A DNA stretch of 64,000 bases from sequence record NC_048194.1; one strand, given 5' to 3'. The translations under genes were made by a program, and so were the position numbers. The notes beneath the pieces are model-generated. The model saw nothing but the letters and a program-made list of their open reading frames with translations. It did no database searches and had not been told where the DNA came from. Every line of letters begins with the position of its first letter. Within the stretch, counting starts at the first letter, position 1. Below, piece by piece: positions 5,685-19,615 of the stretch. The stretch comes from Escherichia phage vB_EcoM_WFH.

Positions 5685-8009
5685 TTATTTCGCTTCCTTT
5701 AGCGCGGCTATCTCTGCCTCTAGTGACTCGACCTTCTTCATCAACTCCTGCACCACGTGCATCGTATCCAAAAGCATAGGTGTTGTGTCAAGTTCTTTTT
5801 GTTCAACAATTTCTCCTGGATTGCTCCCAACATATTTGCGCGTCTTAACATATAAAGGCTCAACACCCTCTGCTTGCTGTGCAATCACGCCGTGCCGAAC
5901 TCGATTTTGTTCGTCATTGTCATAAATGAACTCTACAAATTCCAGTCCTTTAATATTAGAGTATGATTTGTCAACTCCAACAGGGGCGATGCCATGTTTT
6001 ACACGTGAGTCAGAAGTGCCATTTTTTGTATAACTGAAGTTACCGTAATCGGTTGAACCATATATTTGACCATCAATGTCAAAAAAGTAACGGCAAAATT
6101 TTCCGTTATCTCCACCGATTACCACACAAGCTATGCCGAATGCAGCATTACCTGGTAAATACATATGGTATCCAACCTTGGTTGGGTATCCATTAGGTTT
6201 GGTGGCACCGATAGAATAGCCGCGCACCAGAGTATCTGATCCACTCGCGATGGCCACTCTGTCCATTCCGTTAGTGGTCAAGTTAGATACAGCGGCATCC
6301 GTTATTCCATTCCATGTGCCTAAAGGCGTATACATGCGGAATGGGTTGGTCTTCCCTGACTGTCGAAAGTCAACGGTGCCATCTTCATAGAATTTATAAG
6401 CGTGCTTGGAAGAACCCTCCGCCTCTACGACTGCATAACTAGAAGAACCCCATGAAGAACTTGAGTACAGGCGTGCAAACTGTGATGAACTAGGATTGCT
6501 ATATTTTGACTCTACTTTGCCGCCGACAACCAGTGCGCCTGCCACTGGTGCGCTTGAGTCTGCATTGATTACGCTCCAAGACGTATTCGCAGCAACAAAT
6601 CCACCCGATGCACGAATCACCCAAACGCCAACGAAGTTACGGCCCATGATTTCACTGTTTGAACGGCCATAAACTGGGCTTGATCGACTGGCGTCAAAGC
6701 TTACACGTTGAATACCAGACCCCATGTCGTAGTTCTGTACAGGAGCCTCTGACTGGAAATACAGGAAAGGACCAGTAGCACCGTACTGAATGACGCCACC
6801 GATATTACCGATGATGTTAGGCGCAGCAGAATCAAACACAACACCATCAGCATTGGCGTTTGCCGTTCCATTCCCTGCACCATCACCTCGCCCATAGAGA
6901 GCGGCTAATGAACCAACTTGAACGCCGTTTCGGTCAGGCACGCGGAAAGTCGTTGTACCATTACCAAGTGAATACTTTCCGCGTTTTGTAGGGTCTGCAA
7001 GCCAGTCAGCATCAGCAATAGGAGTCAACATCTGCGCATAAGCCCAAAGCTCAGGCCAGTCTGCACGGTTAAGCAATTGCCCGTCTGCCACAACTTCATA
7101 CGGCTGGATGTATGCGCGACTATCACGTAAGTGAAAATCACCAACACCATAGTTCATTACACCGTTCATGTTCGGTCCAACGGTGCCAGTGTTTATAAGG
7201 TTTTGAACCCAACGTTTAGTCGCAGCATCATAATCATTCACAGGGTCACCAGCAAGCGGAGTTGGGCCTGTCGGTCGAATATTCAACCAAGCCTGCGCAT
7301 TATCCCCTGATCCTGTGCCACCCATGGAAGTGGGAACGATATTTTGATCAGCGACTTGTCCGAATCCAAAAGCAGATTTCATGCCCTGAATGGTAGTCTG
7401 GCCTGTACCACCATTTGTGACTGGGATTACATCTTTGTCGGTGTATATTCGCACCCAATTAGACCAAGCCGATGATGCAGCGGTGTATCTTCTTTGGTGC
7501 AGCGTGTTATTGGAATAAGTTGTATATCTTTGGATGCAACTTTCTGTGGCAACGCCTGTTTGTAGCACCTCAAGAACTCCCGCTTGTTCCACAGGGTAGT
7601 TAAGGGGTGCCGATGCGCCAGCATTTGCTGATTGGTGATATTGACCAAACCATGAACCAGTCAACGCATTAAGGTTGATGCCTGAGGGAATCTCTCCAAA
7701 GTTTCGGACAGTACCCGTCAAAGTCGCAGCAGTTGTTCGAATGGAAAGTAAATCACCAGCCGCCCATGCACGCGCTGCAGTACCTTCCTGTGCACGCTGC
7801 ACGGTCAGGACGTTTCCAACCACGGCTGTTACTGTGACTATTTCAAATTGTAGGCCTGTTGCAGCGTCGACGATTGTCGCCACTACACGCTCGTTTGCGC
7901 CCAAGGTCGGAAAGTCTGACCCTGAGCGAATTGTGATTGTGGTGTCTGAAGTTGTCGTTGGTTGAGCCAGCGCGACCTCAAAGTTGTTTTTGAATATTAG
8001 CCTTGGCAT
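5685..8009 (-). CDS. Tail fibre / tailspike with C-terminal intramolecular chaperone (peptidase S74-like) domain
   Basis: 774 aa; fibre-type N-terminal domain; Gly/Ser/Thr-rich shaft; C-terminal GTSDSRVKHG cleavage-type motif followed by a coiled coil (ESLEAEIAALKEAK); RBS GAGGA. Confidence 0.7.
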   Translation of the reverse strand: MPRLIFKNNFEVALAQPTTTSDTTITIRSGSDFPTLGANERVVATIVDAATGLQFEIVTVTAVVGNVLTVQRAQEGTAARAWAAGDLLSIRTTAATLTGTVRNFGEIPSGINLNALTGSWFGQYHQSANAGASAPLNYPVEQAGVLEVLQTGVATESCIQRYTTYSNNTLHQRRYTAASSAWSNWVRIYTDKDVIPVTNGGTGQTTIQGMKSAFGFGQVADQNIVPTSMGGTGSGDNAQAWLNIRPTGPTPLAGDPVNDYDAATKRWVQNLINTGTVGPNMNGVMNYGVGDFHLRDSRAYIQPYEVVADGQLLNRADWPELWAYAQMLTPIADADWLADPTKRGKYSLGNGTTTFRVPDRNGVQVGSLAALYGRGDGAGNGTANANADGVVFDSAAPNIIGNIGGVIQYGATGPFLYFQSEAPVQNYDMGSGIQRVSFDASRSSPVYGRSNSEIMGRNFVGVWVIRASGGFVAANTSWSVINADSSAPVAGALVVGGKVESKYSNPSSSQFARLYSSSSWGSSSYAVVEAEGSSKHAYKFYEDGTVDFRQSGKTNPFRMYTPLGTWNGITDAAVSNLTTNGMDRVAIASGSDTLVRGYSIGATKPNGYPTKVGYHMYLPGNAAFGIACVVIGGDNGKFCRYFFDIDGQIYGSTDYGNFSYTKNGTSDSRVKHGIAPVGVDKSYSNIKGLEFVEFIYDNDEQNRVRHGVIAQQAEGVEPLYVKTRKYVGSNPGEIVEQKELDTTPMLLDTMHVVQELMKKVESLEAEIAALKEAK

Positions 8010-9422: not shown

Positions 9423-10883
9423 ATGAATAAAATATTAACACATAATTGGAAAGTCATGTACCAGTTGAATCCTGCTTTAAGAGAAGTCTGGAAGACGAAA
9501 GCGCGATACAAAGTCATATACGGCGGTCGTGCATCTTCCAAATCGCACGATGCCGCTGGTTTTGCTATTTATTTGGCGGCAAACTTCAAATTAAAATTCC
9601 TTTGCGTTCGACAATTCCAGAACAAGATTTCTGAATCAGTATATACGCTATTAAAAGATAAAATAGAGATTTCTGATTTTAAAGACGAGTTCAACTTATT
9701 AAAAAACTCTATTGAACACAAAAGAACAAAATCTGAATTTTTATTTTACGGTATCGCACGCAACGTTGACGAAATCAAATCAACAGAAGGTGTTGATGTT
9801 CTTTGGCTTGAAGAAGCGCATGCACTGACTGAAGAGCAATGGGACATTATTGAGCCGACAATTCGTAAGGAAGGGTCCGAAATATGGATCATATTTAACC
9901 CTGATGAAGAGGCTGATTTCGTCTACCAGAACTTTGTTATGCGACCGCCGAAAAATGCCATCGTTAAGAAGATTAACTGGCAGGACAATCCATTCTTGTC
10001 GCAAACAATGCTGGATGTTATCGCTGGCATGTATGAGCGCGACCCGAAAAAGGCAGAACACGTTTATGGCGGAGTGCCGAAGACAGGTGGCGATAAGTCG
10101 GTCATCAACCGTGCATTCGTCAAAGCCGCGCTAAACCTCCACAAACACCCTACGCTGGGATGGAGCTTGTCAGGGTCTAACCGTATAGGCTTCGACGTGG
10201 CGGACGACGGCGACGACTTAAACGCCACAGCGTTTGTCACAGGCAACGTATTACGTGGCATCAAGACATGGGAAGGTCTGGAAGATGAATTGCTTAAGTC
10301 CGCAAGCGGAGTCTGGAAAGACGCATTGACATTCGGCGCATCAATCACCTATGACGCCATCGGTGTTGGTGCATTTGCTGGTTCAAAATTTGATGAGCTT
10401 AATGAGTATGCAATCCATGAAAATCCAACATTCCCAAGAATCGAATTTAATGCGTTCAACGCGCAAGGTGCTGTTGATGATCCTGATGACGTCTTCCTTG
10501 AGTTACCACACGTTGAAATACTCAATAAAGACCATTTCGCAAACATAAAAGCGCAAAAATGGACTGAGATTGCCGAACGATTCAGAAAGACATATGAGTA
10601 TGCGACAGGGCAAGCCGTATATCCGACCGATGAGTTGATTTCCATCGACACAGACGGCATCCCAGAACTTGGTATTCCCGCTTGGTCTGCGGAAGAAATT
10701 GAGACGTTTCTTTTTGAGATGTCAGCACCGCGCAAAGACACGTCTGTACTTGGCAAGTTCAAAGTTGAATCGAAAAAGGATATGGCAAAGCGTGGAGTCA
10801 AATCGCCTAACAAAGCGGACGCAGCAATCATGGCATTGATGAAACCAATTGTTGCAGCATCCGGCTTCTTCTCTAACCTTTAA
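9423..10883 (+). CDS. terL: Terminase large subunit
   Basis: Walker A GGRASSKSH near the N-terminus, Walker B-like VLWLEEAH, nuclease-type C-terminal half; 486 aa; portal follows. Confidence 0.9.
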   Translation: MNKILTHNWKVMYQLNPALREVWKTKARYKVIYGGRASSKSHDAAGFAIYLAANFKLKFLCVRQFQNKISESVYTLLKDKIEISDFKDEFNLLKNSIEHKRTKSEFLFYGIARNVDEIKSTEGVDVLWLEEAHALTEEQWDIIEPTIRKEGSEIWIIFNPDEEADFVYQNFVMRPPKNAIVKKINWQDNPFLSQTMLDVIAGMYERDPKKAEHVYGGVPKTGGDKSVINRAFVKAALNLHKHPTLGWSLSGSNRIGFDVADDGDDLNATAFVTGNVLRGIKTWEGLEDELLKSASGVWKDALTFGASITYDAIGVGAFAGSKFDELNEYAIHENPTFPRIEFNAFNAQGAVDDPDDVFLELPHVEILNKDHFANIKAQKWTEIAERFRKTYEYATGQAVYPTDELISIDTDGIPELGIPAWSAEEIETFLFEMSAPRKDTSVLGKFKVESKKDMAKRGVKSPNKADAAIMALMKPIVAASGFFSNL

Positions 10884-11663: not shown

Positions 11664-11701
11664 ATAGATTGATTCCCTTTCACTGTCAGGTGGCGTTAAC
11701 A

Positions 11702-14077
11702 ATGAAAATTCTTGGCATAAAACTCTGGGAGAAGACGCAACCAGAAGCCGAACCAGCGGAGATGCCGCCAGGCGACCCATTGGCACCGTTTGAACGCCTT
11801 GAAAGGCGCGGCAGCGGTCAACGCTGGGAAAAGACTGAAAGCAATCGACCGACCTTTAAAACGGTTGATGACTTCCCTTTATATGAGCCTGATATTAATG
11901 GCGATGGTGTTGCAATCATAAAAGGTCGTTCAGTCGATTCCGCAACAGTATCCAAAAAGGTTATGGATAATGCCTTAAAGAACATCAGTTCAGAAGGGCA
12001 AGTCAACCCATACACAGTACCTATTCAACTTCAAAACTGGTATTTGTCACAGTCATTCATCGGCTATCAAGCTTGTGCCATCATCGCACAGCATTGGCTG
12101 GTGAACAAGGCATGTTCCATGGTAGGCCGCGATGCGGTCCGTAAAGGTTGGGAAGTCAAATCCAGTTCTGAGTCAGAATTGTCAGTACAGGCAAGCGAAC
12201 GCCTAAAGCAAATTGATAAAGAATTTAATATCAAAGAGCACTTAGTTGAAGCCGAACGATTCAAAAATATTTTTGGTATCCGCGTCATCATATTTGATGT
12301 GCGTAGCGATGACCCAGAATATTACAGCAAGCCTTTTAACATTGATGGCGTGACAAAGGGGTCTTATAAGGGAATCATTCAGGTTGACCCTTATTGGATG
12401 ATGCCGTTTCTGACGTCTGAAAACACCGCCGACCCTGCATCACAGCACTTCTATGATCCAGAATACTGGGTGATCAGCGGACAACGTTATCATCGCAGCC
12501 ACCTAATCATCTTGCGCAATGATGAGCCAGCTGATATTCTCAAGCCAACTTATATTTACGGCGGCATTCCTCTGACTCAGCAGATTTATGAACGCATCTA
12601 TGCCGCTGAACGTACCGCTAACGAAGCGCCATTGCTGGCAATGTCCAAGCGTACAACCACGCTGCGGACAGACGTTGACAAGGCGATTGCCAATGAGCGG
12701 TCTTTTGCAGAACGTCTGATGATGTGGATCAAGTACCGCGACAACTATGCAGTCAAAGTGCTTGGCCAAAAAGAAGAGATGGACCAGTTTGACATTAACT
12801 TGTCAGACTTCGACAGCATCATCATGAACCAGTACCAGCTTGTGGCCGCAATCGCAAAAGTTCCGTCGACCAAACTGCTTGGGACTTCGCCAAAAGGCTT
12901 TAACGCCACTGGTGAATTCGAGATGGTCAGCTATCACGAAGAGTTGGAAACGTGCCAGCAGCATGACCTGACAAAAATTCTCGACCGCCATTACAAAATC
13001 CTTCTCAAATCAGAAGGGGTGGATGTCGATGTTAAGGTTGCATGGGAACCAGTTGGCTCACTTACTGCTACTCAACTTGCAGAAATCAATGATAAGCGAG
13101 CCAACACTGGCAAAACTCTTATTGATGCTGGCGTCATTTCTCCTGATGAAGAGCGCGACCGCATCAAAGACGACAAAAACAGCGGCTACAACCGTCTGCC
13201 GGAAGACGCAGCAGAAGAAACCCCAGGGATGTCTCCAGAGAATATGGCATTGCTTGGCAAGTCTGCTGGTGAAGTCCTGCAAGGTAAGGCCGATATTGAA
13301 CAGGCGAAAGCTGATGTCGTTAAGATGGGCGGCCAGTTCTATAGCGAAACAGGTATTATGCCAGAGGGTGCCGCGCGTGGTGAGTTGGCGGAAAACCCTG
13401 ACAAAGCGCCTGTCGAAATCAACATGGACGATACCGATGATGAATCAAGCCATCAGGTTGATGTCCTAACGCAGTTGAAAGAAGGGCTGGAGGGTATTGC
13501 GGATTACTACCTGAAAGAAGGTCAGGATGTGGATTTTGACCCTCAAAAAGATTCACGGTCGGTGCAACCGTCTACCCTTCCAAGCGTTAAAGGACACGTC
13601 GTCAACTTACGCCACAACGTGGGTAAAATGGACGCAGCATCATTACCTAAGATGAAGTTGCACGGAATGATTCTTGGCATTGAGAATCCGCGAAACAGCA
13701 TTCGTAGAGGAAACAGCCTTGACGGTGAATGGGCCGTGAAGATGCCGCACCACTACGGATTCATCAAGGGCACCAAGGGCGCAGACGGTGATGAAGTCGA
13801 CTGCTTTGTGGGTCCAAATCTGAAGTCGCCGAAAGTCTTTATCGTGAACCAAAACGATAACTACTCTGGCGAGTTTGATGAACACAAGTGTATGCTTGGA
13901 TTCGATTCAGCAGAAGAAGCGAAAGAAGCTTATCAAGCATCATTTGGTAACGGTTGGAACGGATTCGACTCAATCCACGAATTAGATGTGAACTCATTCA
14001 AGGAGTGGTTGAAGGGTGATTGCTCTCAAGCATACGGAGCACTCAATAATCCTACTAATTCACCGAAGCAAGGTTGA
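11702..14077 (+). CDS. Portal protein with a C-terminal extension carrying an inorganic-pyrophosphatase-type signature
   Basis: Position between terL and MuF; ORF 11669-14077 trimmed to the ATG after AGGTGG; C-terminal about 150 aa contains YGFIKGTKGADGDEVDCFV (D-x-D-x-x-D pattern) and AEEAKEAYQASF. Confidence 0.7.
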   Translation: MKILGIKLWEKTQPEAEPAEMPPGDPLAPFERLERRGSGQRWEKTESNRPTFKTVDDFPLYEPDINGDGVAIIKGRSVDSATVSKKVMDNALKNISSEGQVNPYTVPIQLQNWYLSQSFIGYQACAIIAQHWLVNKACSMVGRDAVRKGWEVKSSSESELSVQASERLKQIDKEFNIKEHLVEAERFKNIFGIRVIIFDVRSDDPEYYSKPFNIDGVTKGSYKGIIQVDPYWMMPFLTSENTADPASQHFYDPEYWVISGQRYHRSHLIILRNDEPADILKPTYIYGGIPLTQQIYERIYAAERTANEAPLLAMSKRTTTLRTDVDKAIANERSFAERLMMWIKYRDNYAVKVLGQKEEMDQFDINLSDFDSIIMNQYQLVAAIAKVPSTKLLGTSPKGFNATGEFEMVSYHEELETCQQHDLTKILDRHYKILLKSEGVDVDVKVAWEPVGSLTATQLAEINDKRANTGKTLIDAGVISPDEERDRIKDDKNSGYNRLPEDAAEETPGMSPENMALLGKSAGEVLQGKADIEQAKADVVKMGGQFYSETGIMPEGAARGELAENPDKAPVEINMDDTDDESSHQVDVLTQLKEGLEGIADYYLKEGQDVDFDPQKDSRSVQPSTLPSVKGHVVNLRHNVGKMDAASLPKMKLHGMILGIENPRNSIRRGNSLDGEWAVKMPHHYGFIKGTKGADGDEVDCFVGPNLKSPKVFIVNQNDNYSGEFDEHKCMLGFDSAEEAKEAYQASFGNGWNGFDSIHELDVNSFKEWLKGDCSQAYGALNNPTNSPKQG

Positions 14078-14078
14078 T

Positions 14079-14930
14079 ATGGCTTTTAAAGCTTCGAAAA
14101 AACGTGAACGCCGCTCACCCGATAGAATCGGGCGCGGCAGTCCGATAATCCCATCAAACGCTATTGCGATGGCCTACCGTCGTGAGATGAAAGGTCTTTG
14201 CTATGCGATGATTGATGACTATCAGGCAGGAATTTCAGAGTGGCTTGAAAAGAAGCAGGTGCAGAAGTTCTTTGCGCAAGACTCTGCTGATTCAACATTC
14301 CAAACTCTTATGAAACGTCTGCAGCTGAAATGGGCAAAGGCGTTTGCTCGTGTTGGGTCGAAGATTGCCGCTGATTTTATCAAGTCGGTTGAAAAGGGTG
14401 CTACTTCTGCTACATTCGCCAGCCTTAAGTCCGCAGGCATAGAAGCGCCAAAGGCCACATATAACAAATTCGTTGAGAACACTCTTAGAACAAGCGAGAC
14501 GTTTAACACGACTCTAGTGACTAAGGTCGGCGAGGATATTCACAACAGAGTGTACGAAGCAGTCATGCTTTCGCTGACTTCGCCCGACCCAGCCCAGCAA
14601 GGCACGTCAGGCATTCAGGCGGCGCTGCGAAACGTAAAACACTTCTCTGCAAAGAGAGTCGACTTAATCGCTAAAGACCAGACAAGCAAATTGTATTGCG
14701 TTCTAAGCGATGAAAGGATGCGCCAGAATGGAGTTGAAGAATTTGAATGGGCGCACTCAGGAGCAGGAAAGGAGCCGCGAATCTCTCATGAACATGTCGA
14801 CGGAATGAGATTCAAACTTGATGACAAGCGTCTATGGGAAGTGGGCGGAGAGTTGAAGTTCAAAAAGGGTGACATCGGTCCTCCTGGATGGGCGATACAC
14901 TGCAAGTGCAGAAAAATACCAATCATTTGA
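14079..14930 (+). CDS. Head morphogenesis protein (Mu F / SPP1 gp7-like)
   Basis: Follows portal; C-terminal HEHVDGMRF ... PPGWAIHCKCR typical of this family. Confidence 0.75.
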   Translation: MAFKASKKRERRSPDRIGRGSPIIPSNAIAMAYRREMKGLCYAMIDDYQAGISEWLEKKQVQKFFAQDSADSTFQTLMKRLQLKWAKAFARVGSKIAADFIKSVEKGATSATFASLKSAGIEAPKATYNKFVENTLRTSETFNTTLVTKVGEDIHNRVYEAVMLSLTSPDPAQQGTSGIQAALRNVKHFSAKRVDLIAKDQTSKLYCVLSDERMRQNGVEEFEWAHSGAGKEPRISHEHVDGMRFKLDDKRLWEVGGELKFKKGDIGPPGWAIHCKCRKIPII

Positions 14931-14937
14931 GGTCATT

Positions 14938-15858
14938 ATGACGATACCAATCAGCACGTTTCCTCTATCTGGACAAACGCCAGTATTGCCTGCTGTATAT
15001 GCTAACGGTTTGGCGATTGTTTCGGAATTCACATCCGATAAAAACCTGATTGTTCCATTGAGTCCGCCATTGGCGTCTGGATACAATTCAGTTGGCCAGT
15101 TCTTTATGATCGGTAATGATGGCGATTCTACCAGCAAGCCGAATCTGACACTTTCAGTTCCCAAAATGAACATAACAGACGTGCAGACTGGTTTAACTGC
15201 ATCTACGATCACCATCGCTTTTGGAGAAGCAGTGATTATAGGCATGGAGTCTGGAGGGTCCAATAATGCTGTCGCCGTTAAGGTAGTCAAATCCAGCAGC
15301 AACCAATACACACTACCAGCGGCAACGGCTTCTATTCTCGGCGGCGTCAAAATAGGAAGTGGCATAAGCGTTGCAGGTGACGGTACAATTAGTGTGACTC
15401 AATACTCATTACCGATTGCATCAGCATCAACCTTGGGTGGCATAAAGGTAGGAACGACACTATCAATTGATGGTTCTGGCGTCCTTAATGCTGCTGCAAG
15501 TACTGTGCAGAACGCAAGCAACAGCGTAAGCAATCCTCCGACAACTCTGGTGAATCTGGCAACCTTAAACCTGCCTGCAGGGAAATGGCTTGTGACAGCA
15601 AGTCAGTTGACTGTCGCGACAGCAGGAGTTCAAGCGAATACCGGAATTACAGTCAAACTGTCAACAAGTAATTCAGATATTACGGATGATGCATTTACAA
15701 TGTCAGCTGGAATTCGGGCTGCAGGTCGTTTCGGCGGCAATATTCCAACAAAGATAATTACCCTTGCCGCGCCTGGCAACGTGTATCTAAACTATCAATG
15801 CACAGACGCATTGACATCTACCGTTTACGGACAGATCACCGCAATTAAGTTGAACTAA
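14938..15858 (+). CDS. Fibre-repeat protein inside the head module (candidate head fibre or decoration)
   Basis: Two copies of a fibre-like repeat (YTLPAATASILGGVKIGSGISVAGDGTISV and YSLPIASASTLGGIKVGTTLSIDGSGVLN); ORF trimmed to the ATG after GAGGT. Confidence 0.5.
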   Translation: MTIPISTFPLSGQTPVLPAVYANGLAIVSEFTSDKNLIVPLSPPLASGYNSVGQFFMIGNDGDSTSKPNLTLSVPKMNITDVQTGLTASTITIAFGEAVIIGMESGGSNNAVAVKVVKSSSNQYTLPAATASILGGVKIGSGISVAGDGTISVTQYSLPIASASTLGGIKVGTTLSIDGSGVLNAAASTVQNASNSVSNPPTTLVNLATLNLPAGKWLVTASQLTVATAGVQANTGITVKLSTSNSDITDDAFTMSAGIRAAGRFGGNIPTKIITLAAPGNVYLNYQCTDALTSTVYGQITAIKLN

Positions 15859-15868
15859 AGAGGAAGTT

Positions 15869-16006
15869 ATGCAAAAGATTATTCAGTCACGTTACGTTAA
15901 AGTGCGAAATATTAATTGCAACTCTTTGCTTTCTTGGAAATGGGCTGTTTACGACTCGATGCTGATTGGCGTTTTAGTTGCTGGAGTGCTTTTTAATATT
16001 CACTGA
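15869..16006 (+). CDS. Small membrane protein (45 aa), not in the supplied ORF track
   Basis: Strong RBS AAGAGGAAG 6 nt before the ATG; hydrophobic AVYDSMLIGVLVAGVLF. Confidence 0.4.
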   Translation: MQKIIQSRYVKVRNINCNSLLSWKWAVYDSMLIGVLVAGVLFNIH

Positions 16007-16039
16007 ATCGCCTGGCAATGGATTGCCGCAGGATTTTAC

Positions 16040-16320
16040 GCGTATAATGACGTATCATCCGTATCAAGTAAGTAGTTGTTTTCAAAAGAATCTTACGGAT
16101 GATACGGATGATACGCGTTGCCGCGATACTTTATAGGAATTCAAATAAATTAATTTAAAATTATATATCTAATTTAATTTTATTTTTTTATAAACTCTTA
16201 TATATGAAAAGTATCCGTATCATCCGTATCATCCGTAGCACACCAGTGATAGCGCGGCTTATACACCGATACGGATAAAAATACGCCTCATTTTATCCGT
16301 ATCATCCGTATCACACTAAT
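16040..16320. repeat. Origin-like element: inverted arrays of the 9-mer ATCCGTATC flanking a 70-bp AT-rich core
   Basis: CGTATCATCCGTATCA (16051-16066), inverted TACGGATGATACGGATGATACG (16094-16115), AT tract 16141-16210, GTATCCGTATCATCCGTATCATCCGTAGC (16211-16239), CGATACGGATA (16268-16278), TTATCCGTATCATCCGTATCAC (16293-16314). Confidence 0.65.
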
Positions 16321-16370
16321 TAAGGCGCGACTATATCGGTTGTTATACATATTCAAACCATAATTATTGT

Positions 16371-16399
16371 TTGCCTAAGTTTTTTTCATTAGATATAAT
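16371..16399 (+). promoter_or_regulatory. sigma70-like promoter for the head-gene operon
   Basis: TTGCCT, 17-nt spacer, TATAAT, about 30 nt upstream of the ATG at 16429. Confidence 0.5.
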
Positions 16400-16428
16400 A
16401 CACAATACTTATTTGAGGGTGGATGCGA

Positions 16429-17841
16429 ATGCAAACGGCACGCGAAATTGACAAAAATGGATTCTTGACGATTGTGGGTTGTCCCATTTCGTCATTTGGC
16501 ATTTTTGATTATTCTGCAGGTCAGGTTGGACTTGATGGTGATCCGAATCGCATCGTAAAAGTTTATCGCCCAGAGTCAGCGGTGAAAGACCCCGAAGCGA
16601 TAGATTCATTCAAAAATATCCCTTTCATCGACAATCACGAAATGCTTTCTGGATTCGAAGGTGATGAGGATAACACAGCACCCGAAGAGTATGGCGTTGA
16701 TGGCGTTCTAACTGGCAATGTTTATTATGACAAGCCATGGATGCGCGGCGACCTTAAAGTTTTTAGCCGTCGTCTGAAGAAGGCCATCGATTCTGGAAAG
16801 GTTGACTTGTCTTTGGGCTATGACTGTGAATTCATCATACAGTCTGGAGAGTTTGACGGGCAGCCGTATGAAGTGGTACAGACAACTCTTCGCGGCAACC
16901 ACATTGCTCTCGTGGACGTTGGTCGAGTACCAGGTGCACGGGTGCTGGATGGTCGTTGCTTTGACCATCTTTGTTTGACGACTGTAACACCATCCAACGA
17001 GGATTTAGACATGCCAAAACCGTTAAAAGGTAAAGCGCGTGATAATGCTGTTGAACAGCTGAAATCACTGATCCCTGCGCTCGAACAATTTCTGAATGAA
17101 GAGAGCACCGAAGCTGCTCATCAGGACGAAGTTGAAGTGAAAGCAGAAGAGAAGGATTCAACCGAAGAACGTGAAGAAGTGATGGTTGATCCAGAAGTCA
17201 AAGCAGAAGCTGAAGAGACTCCAGAAGGTGAAGAGAAGTTTGAAGTTGAAACTGAATCTCACGCTGGCGGCGAGCTTCCGCAACTGATCAGCCAAATCGA
17301 AGCACTTATTGCAAAACTGAAAGGTGGCGCGGTAGGTGATGAAGAAGAAGTTGAAGCCGAAGTCAAAGACGAAGAAGTTGAAGTCAAGGCTGAAGATGTA
17401 TCACCTTGCGACAAAGCTGAAGATGTGGTTAGCGGCCTGCAAAACAGCAACGTAAAGGGGGCTTCGGTCGAAAAAGATGACAAACCGACAAAAGCGGCGA
17501 AAGCGTCGCCAGGTCCAGCAAAAGGGGAACACTCAATGGCATCTGATTCAGCAGTTGCTGCTTTCTACGCTGATTCTGCTCGTAAGAATAGCCTCTACCA
17601 GCGCCTGTCTAAAGTTGTTGGTGCCTTTGATCATGCAACTATGGACTCCAAGTCCGTAGCGAAATATGGCGCTAAAAAGTTAGGCTTGAAGTGCGTTGAT
17701 GGTGCTGAGTTTGACGTGGTGGATAATTATCTGCGCGGCGTTGAACACGGTCAAAAACAGCGTGTAGTCGCAAAACAAAAGGCCGCTGCGGATTCTGCAG
17801 CAACTGACGAAGCATTTGAAGCTTGGTTGAAAGGGGAATAA
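16429..17841 (+). CDS. Prohead protease / scaffolding-like protein
   Basis: Conserved-looking N-terminal domain (RGNHIALVDVGR), then a long acidic Glu/Lys/Ala-rich coiled coil typical of scaffolds; directly upstream of the capsid genes. Confidence 0.55.
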   Translation: MQTAREIDKNGFLTIVGCPISSFGIFDYSAGQVGLDGDPNRIVKVYRPESAVKDPEAIDSFKNIPFIDNHEMLSGFEGDEDNTAPEEYGVDGVLTGNVYYDKPWMRGDLKVFSRRLKKAIDSGKVDLSLGYDCEFIIQSGEFDGQPYEVVQTTLRGNHIALVDVGRVPGARVLDGRCFDHLCLTTVTPSNEDLDMPKPLKGKARDNAVEQLKSLIPALEQFLNEESTEAAHQDEVEVKAEEKDSTEEREEVMVDPEVKAEAEETPEGEEKFEVETESHAGGELPQLISQIEALIAKLKGGAVGDEEEVEAEVKDEEVEVKAEDVSPCDKAEDVVSGLQNSNVKGASVEKDDKPTKAAKASPGPAKGEHSMASDSAVAAFYADSARKNSLYQRLSKVVGAFDHATMDSKSVAKYGAKKLGLKCVDGAEFDVVDNYLRGVEHGQKQRVVAKQKAAADSAATDEAFEAWLKGE

Positions 17842-17843
17842 AT

Positions 17844-18461
17844 ATGACTTTCCAAACTAGTGTAGGCCGTCAATATACAACTGGCTTTCCTGGCGACATC
17901 GTTCGCGACGGCCCACAGCGTGGGAAGCCAGGCCGAATTGCCAACGCTAACGAAGGCGCAAACGTAAACGCCATCAGCCGTGTGTTCGGTTTTAAGACTG
18001 ACGTATCCTTAATGGGTACTGGTCAAACCAAAACTTTGGGCGCGCAGGACTTTGAAGTTGAGCTGGGCGGCACCAACTACTACGGCATCCTCGGCAATAG
18101 CAAGCGTTACGCGCTGTATGGCAACTCTACTGGTCCTTTGGGTGCCAGCATGGTTCTGCCTCAATATAGCGAAGGCGAGTTCTATGATATGTGCACGGGC
18201 CTCGTAGTTGAAGTATTCAACCCAAGCACCAGTCCGCAGACGCTTAACTATGGCGACCTGCTTGCTTATGTACCTAAAGGCATTTCCAGCGGTAACAACC
18301 CGAACAACTTGCCTATTGGTGCAATTATCGCCTATACTGGCTCATTGCCAACTGGCATGGTTGCCATCCCAGGCGGTATTGTGATTGACCCGACGACTAT
18401 TGCCCTTTCCGGCCCAAGCGTCCAGTCTTCCACTTATACCATTGTACAATTGACTCGTTAA
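17844..18461 (+). CDS. Capsid-associated structural protein (decoration or minor capsid, uncertain)
   Basis: Lies between scaffold and major capsid genes; Gly/Ser/Thr-rich; RBS AAGGGG. Confidence 0.45.
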   Translation: MTFQTSVGRQYTTGFPGDIVRDGPQRGKPGRIANANEGANVNAISRVFGFKTDVSLMGTGQTKTLGAQDFEVELGGTNYYGILGNSKRYALYGNSTGPLGASMVLPQYSEGEFYDMCTGLVVEVFNPSTSPQTLNYGDLLAYVPKGISSGNNPNNLPIGAIIAYTGSLPTGMVAIPGGIVIDPTTIALSGPSVQSSTYTIVQLTR

Positions 18462-18475
18462 TAGGCAGGTGAATA

Positions 18476-19615
18476 ATGACTCGCATTAGCCAAACACACT
18501 CTCGCCTCCCAGCGAGCAAGGTGCGCCCTTTTGATATGCAATCCGTGACCGACGCGGCTGTTTCCCAGCTTGCGCGTATCGGTATTGTGTTTGATTCCGC
18601 GATTGTGCGTGATCAGATTGAGCACTTAAACCGTGCAGGTGCTTTCCGCGTAGGTGACGCCGCATTTACTGCGCCGCAAACCACGCCATCAATCCCGACC
18701 CCGCTGCAGTTCCTGCAACAGTGGCTGCCTGGCTTCGTCAAAATCATGACCGCTGCCCGTAAAATTGACGAGCTGGTTGGTATTGACACCGTTGGTCAGT
18801 GGGAAGATGCAGAAATCGTTCAGGGCATCGTTGAACCAGCTGGCACCGCAGTTGAATATGGTGATTTCACCTCTATTCCTCTGGCAAGCTGGAACGTGAA
18901 CTTTGAACGCCGTTCCATCGTTCGCGGTGAAATGGGCATGGCAGTCGGCATGCTGGAAGAAGGCCGCGCGTCTGCGATGCGTCTGAACTCTGCAGAGACC
19001 AAGCGCCAGCAGGCTGCTGTATCTCTGGAAATCATGCGTAACGCAATCGGCTTCTATGGTTGGTATAACGGGAACAACCGCACGTTCGGCTTCCTGAATG
19101 ATCCAAACCTGCCAGCGGCAATGACTTCAAACACCACTTCCGGCTGGGCTACTGCGACCTTCCAACAGGTGACTGCAGACATCCGTTTGATGGTTCGTCA
19201 AATCCGTGTCAACTCTCAGGACCAGATTGATCCAGAGAAGGTTGATATGACTCTGGCGCTGCCGACCAACTCTATTGATTGGCTGTCAAACACCACCGAC
19301 TTCGGTATTTCTGTACGTGACTGGATCACCCAGACTTATCCGAAGATGAAGATCAAATCTGCACCGGAACTCAACGGCGCACTTGGCAGTGACCCGACTT
19401 TCCTGAACGTGGCATATCTGTACGCTGATCACATCGATTCCTCAATTGATGGCTCAAGCGATGATGGTTCCGTATTCAGTCAGCTGGTCCAGACTAAGTT
19501 TATGACTCTGGGCGTTGAGAAACGCGCTAAGAGCTACGTTGAAGACTACGCAAACGCAACAGCAGGCGTTCTGCTCAAGCGTCCTTTCGCAGTCGTCCGT
19601 ATGACTGGTATCTAA
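18476..19615 (+). CDS. Major capsid protein
   Basis: 379 aa directly after the scaffold genes, RBS AGGTGA, followed by a hairpin; assigned by position and size. Confidence 0.65.

Follow-up and report, generated by a model that had tools for sequence, protein, structure and literature searches.

The present analysis concerns a 64,000-nucleotide stretch of the genome of Escherichia phage vB_EcoM_WFH (NC_048194.1), hereafter called the window, and within it a Wifcevirus gene at 14938-15858 (+), which starts with ATG at 14938, ends with TAA at 15856-15858, and codes for a product of 306 amino acids (aa) and 30.8 kDa. This protein is very likely an accessory virion fibre that the phage can do without and that carries a lectin-like knob, and, judging from the genes that accompany it, we lean towards the capsid as its site of attachment. 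It consists of an N-terminal domain (N-domain), two repeats and the C-terminal knob. The gene and its parts, with the evidence on which each is placed, are the following.

14938-15858 (+): fibre gene; open reading frame (ORF), ribosome-binding site (RBS), 99% identity to CWP003 UIS25190, virion mass spectrometry (MS) of an orthologue, and a ratio of non-synonymous to synonymous substitution rates (dN/dS) of 0.04
14938-15291 (+): N-domain (aa 1-118), predicted beta-sandwich of about 10 strands and presumed virion anchor; AlphaFold2 (AF2), conservation and remote homologues
15304-15399 (+): repeat 1 (aa 123-154), YTLPAATASILGGVKIGSGISVAGDGTISVTQ; self-alignment, PF11133 match at aa 108-147, and phi29 gp8.5 chains 6qvk and 3qc7
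15400-15495 (+): repeat 2 (aa 155-186), YSLPIASASTLGGIKVGTTLSIDGSGVLNAAA; self-alignment, and a repeat number of 2-4 in the homologues P0002-P0004
15505-15855 (+): knob (aa 190-306), predicted TNF/C1q-like jelly roll of 8 strands and presumed ligand-binding tip; AF2 and Foldseek

The presence of this protein in virions is indicated by the proteomics of its orthologues. CsCl-purified vB_Eco4M-7 and ECML-117 were analysed by liquid chromatography coupled to tandem mass spectrometry (Necel et al. 2020, PMC7048862). In vB_Eco4M-7, an 'unknown protein' of 30.9 kDa, vB_Eco4M-7_38, was identified by 8 peptides with 72.9% coverage and a score of 3354, and in ECML-117, the 30.8-kDa PI34_gp36 was identified by 3 peptides with 15.7% coverage (PMC7048862). 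Since vBEco4M7_38 is, according to its GenBank record, the orthologue of the fibre protein, its detection in CsCl-purified phage places the fibre protein in purified particles. The same MS sets contain a few non-structural proteins, namely, a helicase, a glyoxalase and an endolysin, of which the helicase and the endolysin scored 2-5 (PMC7048862).

With regard to its physiological importance, the fibre gene is split by a 1-bp deletion in an infectious, re-sequenced stock of vB_Eco4M-7, PP596836 (PMC11074155). The deletion, GGCAACC to GGCACC, corresponds to about position 15561 of the window, and is given in Supplementary Table 11 of that study as a frameshift_variant, Thr209fs, in 'vBEco4M7_38' (PMC11074155). 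The genome carrying it was amplified as polymerase chain reaction (PCR) fragments, reassembled and rebooted, and the killing activity of the resulting phage was unchanged (PMC11074155). The frameshift removes the knob, and as the stock is infectious and can be rebooted, the knob is dispensable in culture; this concerns the knob, and not necessarily the whole protein.

In nature, the fibre protein is under strong purifying selection. Identity across 27 Wifcevirus records amounts to 98-100% in the N-domain and to 94-100% in the knob, and in comparisons with Bas100 and vB_Eco4M-7, where the whole-gene synonymous divergence (dS) is 0.58-0.67, dN/dS amounts to about 0.04 overall and to 0.03-0.06 in each of the three parts (0.05-0.06 in the knob). 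The hosts of the phages with this conserved knob comprise O157, O16-restored K-12 and Shigella flexneri. Because of this conservation across host serotypes and of the low dN/dS, the fibre protein is not the variable host-range determinant. In the BASEL study, O-antigen recognition was assigned to two tail fibres, and the fibre gene was left undiscussed (PMC11990801).

The knob was modelled by AF2 with a pLDDT of 85-93, and its Foldseek matches in the PDB are trimeric jelly rolls of the TNF/C1q type (E 1.5e-5 to 6e-4, probability 1.0): ExsFA/BxpB of the Bacillus exosporium, the N-terminal lectin of BC2L-C, the C1q domain of Cbln1, birnavirus VP2, and the CBD of the short tail fibre of cyanophage A-1(L). 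The named domains are trimeric and several of them bind glycans. The likeness lies in the fold (TM 0.5-0.6 on the target), whereas sequence identity is only 11-21%. From this TNF-like fold, and from the collagen repeats of a homologue described below, BcepF1 gp122, which imply a trimer, we infer that the fibre protein is very probably a homotrimer.

The earlier note on this DNA, made from the sequence without database searches, had described a Gly/Ser/Thr-rich protein with two 30-residue repeats of fibre type. The composition is as described, Thr (11.8%), Ser (11.4%) and Gly (10.1%) adding up to 33%, with a further 10.8% of Ala; charged residues (D, E, K, R) account for 8.6%. As for the repeats, the best internal self-alignment pairs aa 120-149 with aa 152-181 (16/30 identities), and its score of 88 (BLOSUM62) compares with 42.8 ± 6.7, and a maximum of 63, in 100 shuffles of the protein. 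A score so far above the shuffles establishes two tandem copies, whose true period is 32 aa rather than 30. Their fibre-type character is borne out by the sole Pfam match of the protein, PF11133 (Phage_head_fibr; 26.7 bits versus a cut-off of 24.6, E 4.5e-6), which is confined to aa 108-147, that is, to profile positions 213-252 of 277. The repeat motif, YxLPxAxxxxLGGxKxG, recurs close to the C-terminal end of gp8.5, the head fibre of phi29, and the gp8.5 entries 6QVK and 3QC7 are the only sequence matches in the PDB (phmmer against all chains at E<=10; E 3-5e-3), with an alignment limited to the motif (YSLPAATTTTLGGVKKG in the fibre protein versus YTLPAATASILGGVKIG in gp8.5). The trimeric beta-helix for which the note had suggested looking was not predicted; the AF2 model has the repeats as short beta-hairpins between two beta-sandwich domains, with no helix of four or more residues in aa 120-190. 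Among the full-length homologues, the repeat count is 2, 3 or 4, as expected of a fibre shaft.

The N-domain harbours the conserved motifs LPxxYxN, GF, (E/Q)FYxIxNxGD, KPxLT and GE(T/A), and occurs only once within the 64-kb window. A first AF2 run on the full protein with 14 sequences modelled the N-terminal 120 residues poorly (pLDDT 42-70), and the addition of remote homologues, in an alignment of 13 sequences, gave an N-domain pLDDT of 88 and a pTM of 0.80. The N-domain sequence has no match in Pfam, PHROG or the PDB and no similarity to PF07880 or to tail-collar domains, and its profile retrieved only chance matches among PDB sequences (UvrB, E ~1). Its top fold match in the PDB, obtained with Foldseek, is the capsid spike of phage Pa223, 9ny6_C (E 9e-4, TM 0.52). 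Both the N-domain and its fixed place behind the MuF gene appear undescribed: they are outside Pfam and were not discussed in the BASEL analysis of the genus.

The genomic setting is that of a head module, with the following genes around the fibre gene.

9423-10883: TerL, neighbour gene
11669-14077 (+): portal fused to an InPase domain
14076-14930: MuF (Pfam PF04233)
15869-16006 (+): 45-aa ORF with a hydrophobic C-terminal segment, given for context only; annotated as vBEco4M7_39 and Bas100_0007
16423-17841: protease-scaffold of the DUF2213/Pa193_gp24 type
17844-18461: cement protein of the E217 gp24 type (PF22758)
18476-19615: major capsid protein (MCP)

The fibre gene starts 7 nt past MuF, and the scaffold, cement and MCP genes lie downstream. 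Its RBS, GAGG, is located 5 nt 5' of the ATG at 14938 and overlaps the MuF stop codon. The 921-bp coding sequence is called identically in all annotated relatives, its GC content equals that of the genome, and the fibre protein itself is devoid of a signal peptide. The gene had been placed by the earlier note between MuF and the scaffold, and its product interpreted as a head fibre or decoration rather than a tail component. The order is right, but the fibre and scaffold genes do not adjoin, the 45-aa ORF and about 415 bp of non-coding DNA separating them. What stands of the interpretation is an accessory virion fibre whose anchor is syntenic with head genes; the head location is probable, and synteny only is what points to it. 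Absence from virions, which the note had named as a finding that would speak against its reading, is not what is seen, since orthologues occur in CsCl-purified phage (PMC7048862).

At the level of the whole window, identity reaches 99.5% with WFH (OZ035737) and with Shigella phage CWP003 (OL856099), and 90-98% with 25 more myoviruses of E. coli and Shigella (67-72 kb). The phage is a Wifcevirus, an E. coli/Shigella myovirus related to PB1/E217, and its entire structural module is of the Pseudomonas E217/PB1 (Pbunavirus) type. The fibre protein is 99% identical to CWP003 UIS25190, there annotated as 'head fiber protein', and its orthologues include gp38 of vB_Eco4M-7, gp36 of ECML-117 and gp6 of Bas99/100. 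The annotation labels of the orthologues conflict: 'head fiber' in CWP003, 'tail fiber' in Bas98-101, 'tail protein' in F13, 'tail connector' in AV128/EC150, and 'hypothetical' in most records; none of them is based on experiment. An antisense ORF at 14832-15365 (177 aa) was taken as spurious, since mass spectrometry, homologues and dN/dS all speak for the frame of the + strand. The portal protein (PF06381) ends in an InPase-like domain, PF18823 (E 3e-46, aa 660-782), and this fusion is kept in every relative inspected. A 774-aa T-shaped tail fibre, gp27 in vB_Eco4M-7, is encoded at 5685-8009 (-) (phrog_6921, E 1e-194).

A homologue search with the full protein against 5.8 billion proteins returned 315 matches, of which only P0001 (99% identity) and P0002-P0004 (49-57%, BLASTP; on contigs of up to about 72 kb) are full-length, the remaining ones sharing the repeat region only (10-54% coverage). 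In the 49-57%-identical relatives, the fibre gene occupies the same position behind MuF. When a profile built from the four full-length homologues was run against 1.84 billion representative proteins, it identified nine true remote homologues of the N-domain, P0121, P0122 and P0124-P0130 (E 1.7e-10 to 3.8e-4). The N-domain is always N-terminal in them, and the rest of the protein differs; the N-domains of the remote lineages are only 18-30% identical. A tblastn search with the N-domain of P0128 against cultured phages gave no match, nor did a further protein homologue search with the N-domain alignment. The contexts of the remote family members are listed below.

L015/L016: P0128 (405 aa), in the order portal, MuF, 1073-aa protein, P0128, 402-aa protein, scaffold, cement, MCP, and a neck of the E217 type
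L017 7948-9840: P0122 (630 aa), directly behind MuF; a second N-domain protein comes next (two tandem copies)
L020: P0130 (647 aa), directly behind MuF
L021 9001-10800: P0125 (599 aa), directly behind MuF
L014: P0121 (182 aa; N-domain and two repeats, without knob), just 5' of TerL
L022 5593-7344: gp122 of the cultured Burkholderia phage BcepF1 (583 aa, hypothetical protein), directly behind MuF within a head module of the same type

Five of the six independent N-domain lineages (L015/L016, L017, L020, L021 and BcepF1) thus have the gene after MuF in head modules of the E217 type, the exception being L014. The N-domain of BcepF1 gp122 was matched to the family profile by hhalign with a probability of 97.4% (E 1.5e-11). 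It is homologous to the Wifcevirus one and occupies the same slot, whereas the distal part of gp122 is a fibre of collagen triple-helix repeats, above the Pfam threshold, instead of phi29-type repeats and a TNF knob; large beta-rich domains are a third kind of distal module found behind the N-domain. In Burkholderia phage Maja, a relative of BcepF1, gp006 (L007 5521-5727; 68 aa, labelled 'hypothetical') is 42% identical to aa 4-69 of gp122 (66 aa, E 1e-15) and is the truncated remnant of a gp122-like fibre gene, a case of natural loss behind MuF. In Pbunavirus DL60 and Serratia phage MyoSmar, the slot holds two small ORFs only and no fibre gene. On the basis of these contexts, of the Maja remnant and of the empty slots, the place behind MuF is a slot for a fibre gene whose anchor is conserved, whose distal parts are interchangeable, and which has repeatedly been lost. 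We tentatively propose, as an idea that may well hold though we would not yet count on it, that the N-domain is an undescribed capsid-docking module, which would mark a 'fibre slot' behind MuF throughout the E217/PB1-like supergroup (Wifcevirus, Bcepfunavirus and uncultured lineages), with swapped distal modules.

Other small genes are found in this part of the genomes. The fibre-less relatives have an extra conserved protein of 64-69 aa (MPL..GTS...AGKDPKQA.AI.Y), which is not in the slot of the Wifcevirus genomes examined; a relationship between the fibre and the small 68-aa slot protein of Pbunavirus, MyoSmar and Maja (gp007) was ruled out by comparison. In Wifcevirus, Pbunavirus, Bcepfunavirus and Myosmarvirus, the non-coding gap is immediately preceded by an ORF of 45-49 aa with a hydrophobic C-terminal segment; the counterparts of the one at 15869-16006 are DL60 gp86, Maja gp008 and MyoSmar gp080, and their mutual similarity is weak. 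Agrobacterium phage 7-7-1, which has head fibres, was considered as a relative and dropped, the start of its genome holding baseplate genes.

Among known appendages, phi29 gp8.5 (PF11133; PDB 3QC7 and 6QVK) is close in size (280 aa versus 306 aa), has an N-terminal base of about 110 aa that is also beta-rich, and has in common with the fibre protein the motif Y(S/T)LPAAT..LGGVK.G, which lies on the distal side of the shaft. It is reportedly a trimeric appendage at (quasi-)three-fold positions of the capsid, not essential and believed to help in attachment (PMC6542822). However, only about 40 aa match. The base of gp8.5, composed of two small beta-barrels that bind the Ig domain of the MCP (residues 1-110), has no counterpart here, as nothing in the fibre protein matches profile positions 1-200 and neither 6qvk nor the gp8.5 base is among the 50 best Foldseek matches of the N-domain. 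Furthermore, the three-stranded, supercoiled helix-turn-helix stem of gp8.5 is absent from the Wifcevirus model, which is all-beta, gp8.5 lacks a TNF-like knob of the Wifcevirus kind, and the phi29 gene adjoins the MCP gene, not MuF. Having the motif without the base and the stem, the Wifcevirus protein is not a strict member of the gp8.5 family. The spike gp52 of Pa223 is a homotrimer of 295-aa chains, each built from an attachment region at the N-terminus, a middle part rich in beta-strands and a TNF knob; it is located at the three-fold axes of the capsid and proposed to aid adsorption (bioRxiv 10.1101/2025.06.11.659172). It resembles the fibre protein in size, overall layout and C-terminal TNF-fold knob, but shows no sequence similarity to it (phmmer, all PDB chains, E<=10), its attachment region is an extended arm of 40 aa versus a globular domain of 118 aa here, its middle part is a triple beta-helix, and Pa223 itself, a podovirus with a T=7 capsid, has an unrelated head module. 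By analogy, the Wifcevirus fibre would work most like phi29 gp8.5 or Pa223 gp52.

A possible course of events can be outlined as follows. The fibre gene, co-oriented with those of the portal and MuF, would be co-transcribed with them, and its product would trimerise via the TNF-like knob and intertwined repeats. The N-domain trimer would then dock on the particle, most plausibly on the outside of a T=9 shell of the E217 type, where cement protein and MCP would offer a three-fold-symmetric lattice, and the two 32-aa beta-repeats would form a short shaft. The knob would probably bind a surface ligand that is constant across O-serotypes, most likely a conserved glycan, a step suggested by its being both conserved and dispensable, and would thereby add avidity or residence time on cells or mucus-like matrices without setting the host range. 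In rich laboratory culture, the fibre would bring no advantage, and frameshifts may become fixed, as shown once.

Three observations argue for the head: the N-domain is linked to MuF, scaffold, cement and MCP genes across very deep divergence, two other fibre sets already serve the baseplate, and the protein as a whole resembles the capsid spike gp52 of Pa223, the top PDB fold match of its N-domain. A number of points weigh against it. The Pa223 match may concern the TNF knob of the spike and not its attachment region, as the fold search reports no aligned coordinates. The next fold matches of the N-domain are baseplate or tailspike anchors, namely, those of KP1, Solidus gp83, T4 gp10 and gp9, and CBA120 TSP4 (E 4e-3 to 0.25), and the matches in BFVD (TM 0.5-0.6) are generic fibre beta-sandwiches, mostly labelled tail fibre or receptor-binding protein, and head fibre once; the predicted folds of both globular domains thus look generic among phage fibres. 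Laboratory dispensability and loss are typical of accessory side tail fibres too, for example lambda Stf. An estimate of copy number from the MS scores was rejected, as those of the MCP (936), the sheath (891) and the tail fibre (7387) do not track known stoichiometry; the scores are therefore uninformative on that of the fibre. The gene of P0121 precedes TerL instead of following MuF. The T-shaped tail fibre is encoded 5' of TerL, far from the baseplate genes (~27-37 kb), and with a genuine tail fibre encoded outside the tail module, gene position alone is a weak guide. Lastly, none of the Wifcevirus papers found mentions a head fibre, and no published Wifcevirus structure was found.

Many of these points would fit a side fibre or whisker, accessory in nature and borne on the tail, baseplate or neck, that is merely encoded in the head operon and whose N-domain would sit on a neck or baseplate protein of the E217 type; we hold this to be rather unlikely, though it is the most serious of the alternatives. 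Fibres and anchors such as lambda Stf, T4 fibritin and those of the gp9/gp10 type are likewise trimers that are anchored by their N-terminal part and bind through a distal tip, and accessory side fibres and whiskers are dispensable and often lost in laboratory stocks. In PHROG, the repeat region matches families named 'tail protein' and 'tail fiber protein', many repeat-sharing homologues add T4 gp9/10 (PF07880) or tail-collar (PF12571) domains, and the two repeat-only homologues that were looked up behind giant tail-type proteins point the same way, as do the automatic labels of Bas98-101, F13 and AV128/EC150. Many other repeat-only homologues carry PF11133 alone, and one is encoded between the MCP and adaptor genes of a podovirus. 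The repeat motif is hence a mobile shaft module serving head and tail appendages alike, no less frequent beside tail-type domains or in tail-type gene contexts, and with such a module in both kinds of appendage, the Pfam name 'head fibre' is uninformative on location. In addition, the N-domain relatives all share neck and tail genes of the E217 type, so that their co-occurrence holds equally for tail parts. On the other side, no similarity in sequence links the N-domain to PF07880, tail-collar domains or other such anchors, and the fold resemblance to them is weak (E 0.06-0.09 and TM 0.43-0.44 for T4 gp9/gp10; E 0.06-0.25 and TM 0.43-0.49 when CBA120 TSP4 is included). The place behind MuF in the head operon is kept in many lineages with N-domains as divergent as those described above and with differing distal parts, whereas known tail fibres map elsewhere. 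The protein is conserved whatever the host serotype, unlike side fibres, and the two baseplate fibre sets of the BASEL study leave no need for a third. The fibre protein is therefore not demonstrably a tail fibre.

A head location would also suit a mechanical decoration that stabilises the shell, with the knob and repeats as a mere spacer and no role in adhesion. The gene lies in the head module beside that of a dedicated cement protein, its sequence is highly conserved, and phi29 fibres have been proposed to add stability (PMC6542822). This role nevertheless seems improbable, given that the capsid already has its cement protein of the E217 gp24 type (PF22758), that Pbunavirus, MyoSmar and Maja manage without the fibre on the same MCP and cement, and that the knob-less stock is viable. 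Moreover, the knob resembles lectins and receptor-binding tips, and the swapping of distal parts while the anchor stays is the pattern of an adhesin, not of a clamp. Least probable of all, in our view, is that the protein stays outside the particle as a soluble or exported, lectin-like factor that attaches to cells or virions once lysis has occurred, for example to limit re-adsorption to debris or for exclusion, and that co-purifies with phage. The distant homologues P0122, P0124 and perhaps P0125 do start with sequences resembling Sec signal peptides (for instance MLKFVRALFANALLFAATFVVAQ and MKRLYLFFILIAFSVFFSPIHGNVFAQ), a poor fit to a cytoplasmically assembled virion fibre and a further point against our interpretation, and some non-structural proteins are present in the MS sets. 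P0122 and P0125 are encoded in head operons, directly behind MuF, despite such starts. The protein of the window, however, has none. Its orthologue, with 73% coverage, ranks among the best-scoring proteins of CsCl-banded phage, a long way above the non-structural contaminants, and a conserved N-terminal module followed by variable distal ones is the architecture of an anchored fibre.

Apart from the fibre, an element with a 9-bp periodicity, ATCCGTATCATCCGTATCA, is present six times, in either orientation, in the non-coding gap before the scaffold gene (16007-16422), at 16048-66, 16091-16118 (two), 16213-16240 (two) and 16295-16313. Outside the gap, the 64 kb contain no copy of the element, and 0 copies are expected by chance; it is conserved in other Wifceviruses, with two copies in the distant relative L004, and has no family match in Rfam. 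The gap further holds a perfect 22-nt inverted repeat (16094-16115 / 16216-16237) with an AT-rich core between its arms, and the sequence TTGCCT-17-TATAAT, a sigma70-like promoter, at 16371-16399. A gap of similar size is present in Pbunavirus, Maja, MyoSmar and BcepF1. The array looks like a set of candidate regulator-binding sites that might control the scaffold-cement-MCP operon.

With regard to its significance, an accessory fibre of this kind matters in practice as Wifceviruses are candidates for the biocontrol and detection of E. coli O157 and Shigella, and therapy makes use of the related Pbunaviruses. Adsorption, retention in mucus or on debris, and purification (for example, through co-purification of lipopolysaccharide) could all be altered by an accessory adhesin of the particle without a change in the apparent host range, and such an adhesin can vanish silently during propagation, as in the Thr209 frameshift stock. 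The N-domain, together with its fixed place behind MuF, could help annotators to separate such fibres from true tail fibres. The question is directly testable, since a derivative of K-12 serves as a host for the BASEL phages Bas98-101 and since vB_Eco4M-7 already exists as a natural variant without the knob. If the proposed fibre slot is real, the heads of these phages would represent a second, exchangeable platform for adhesins, independent of the tail fibres and easily lost in culture.

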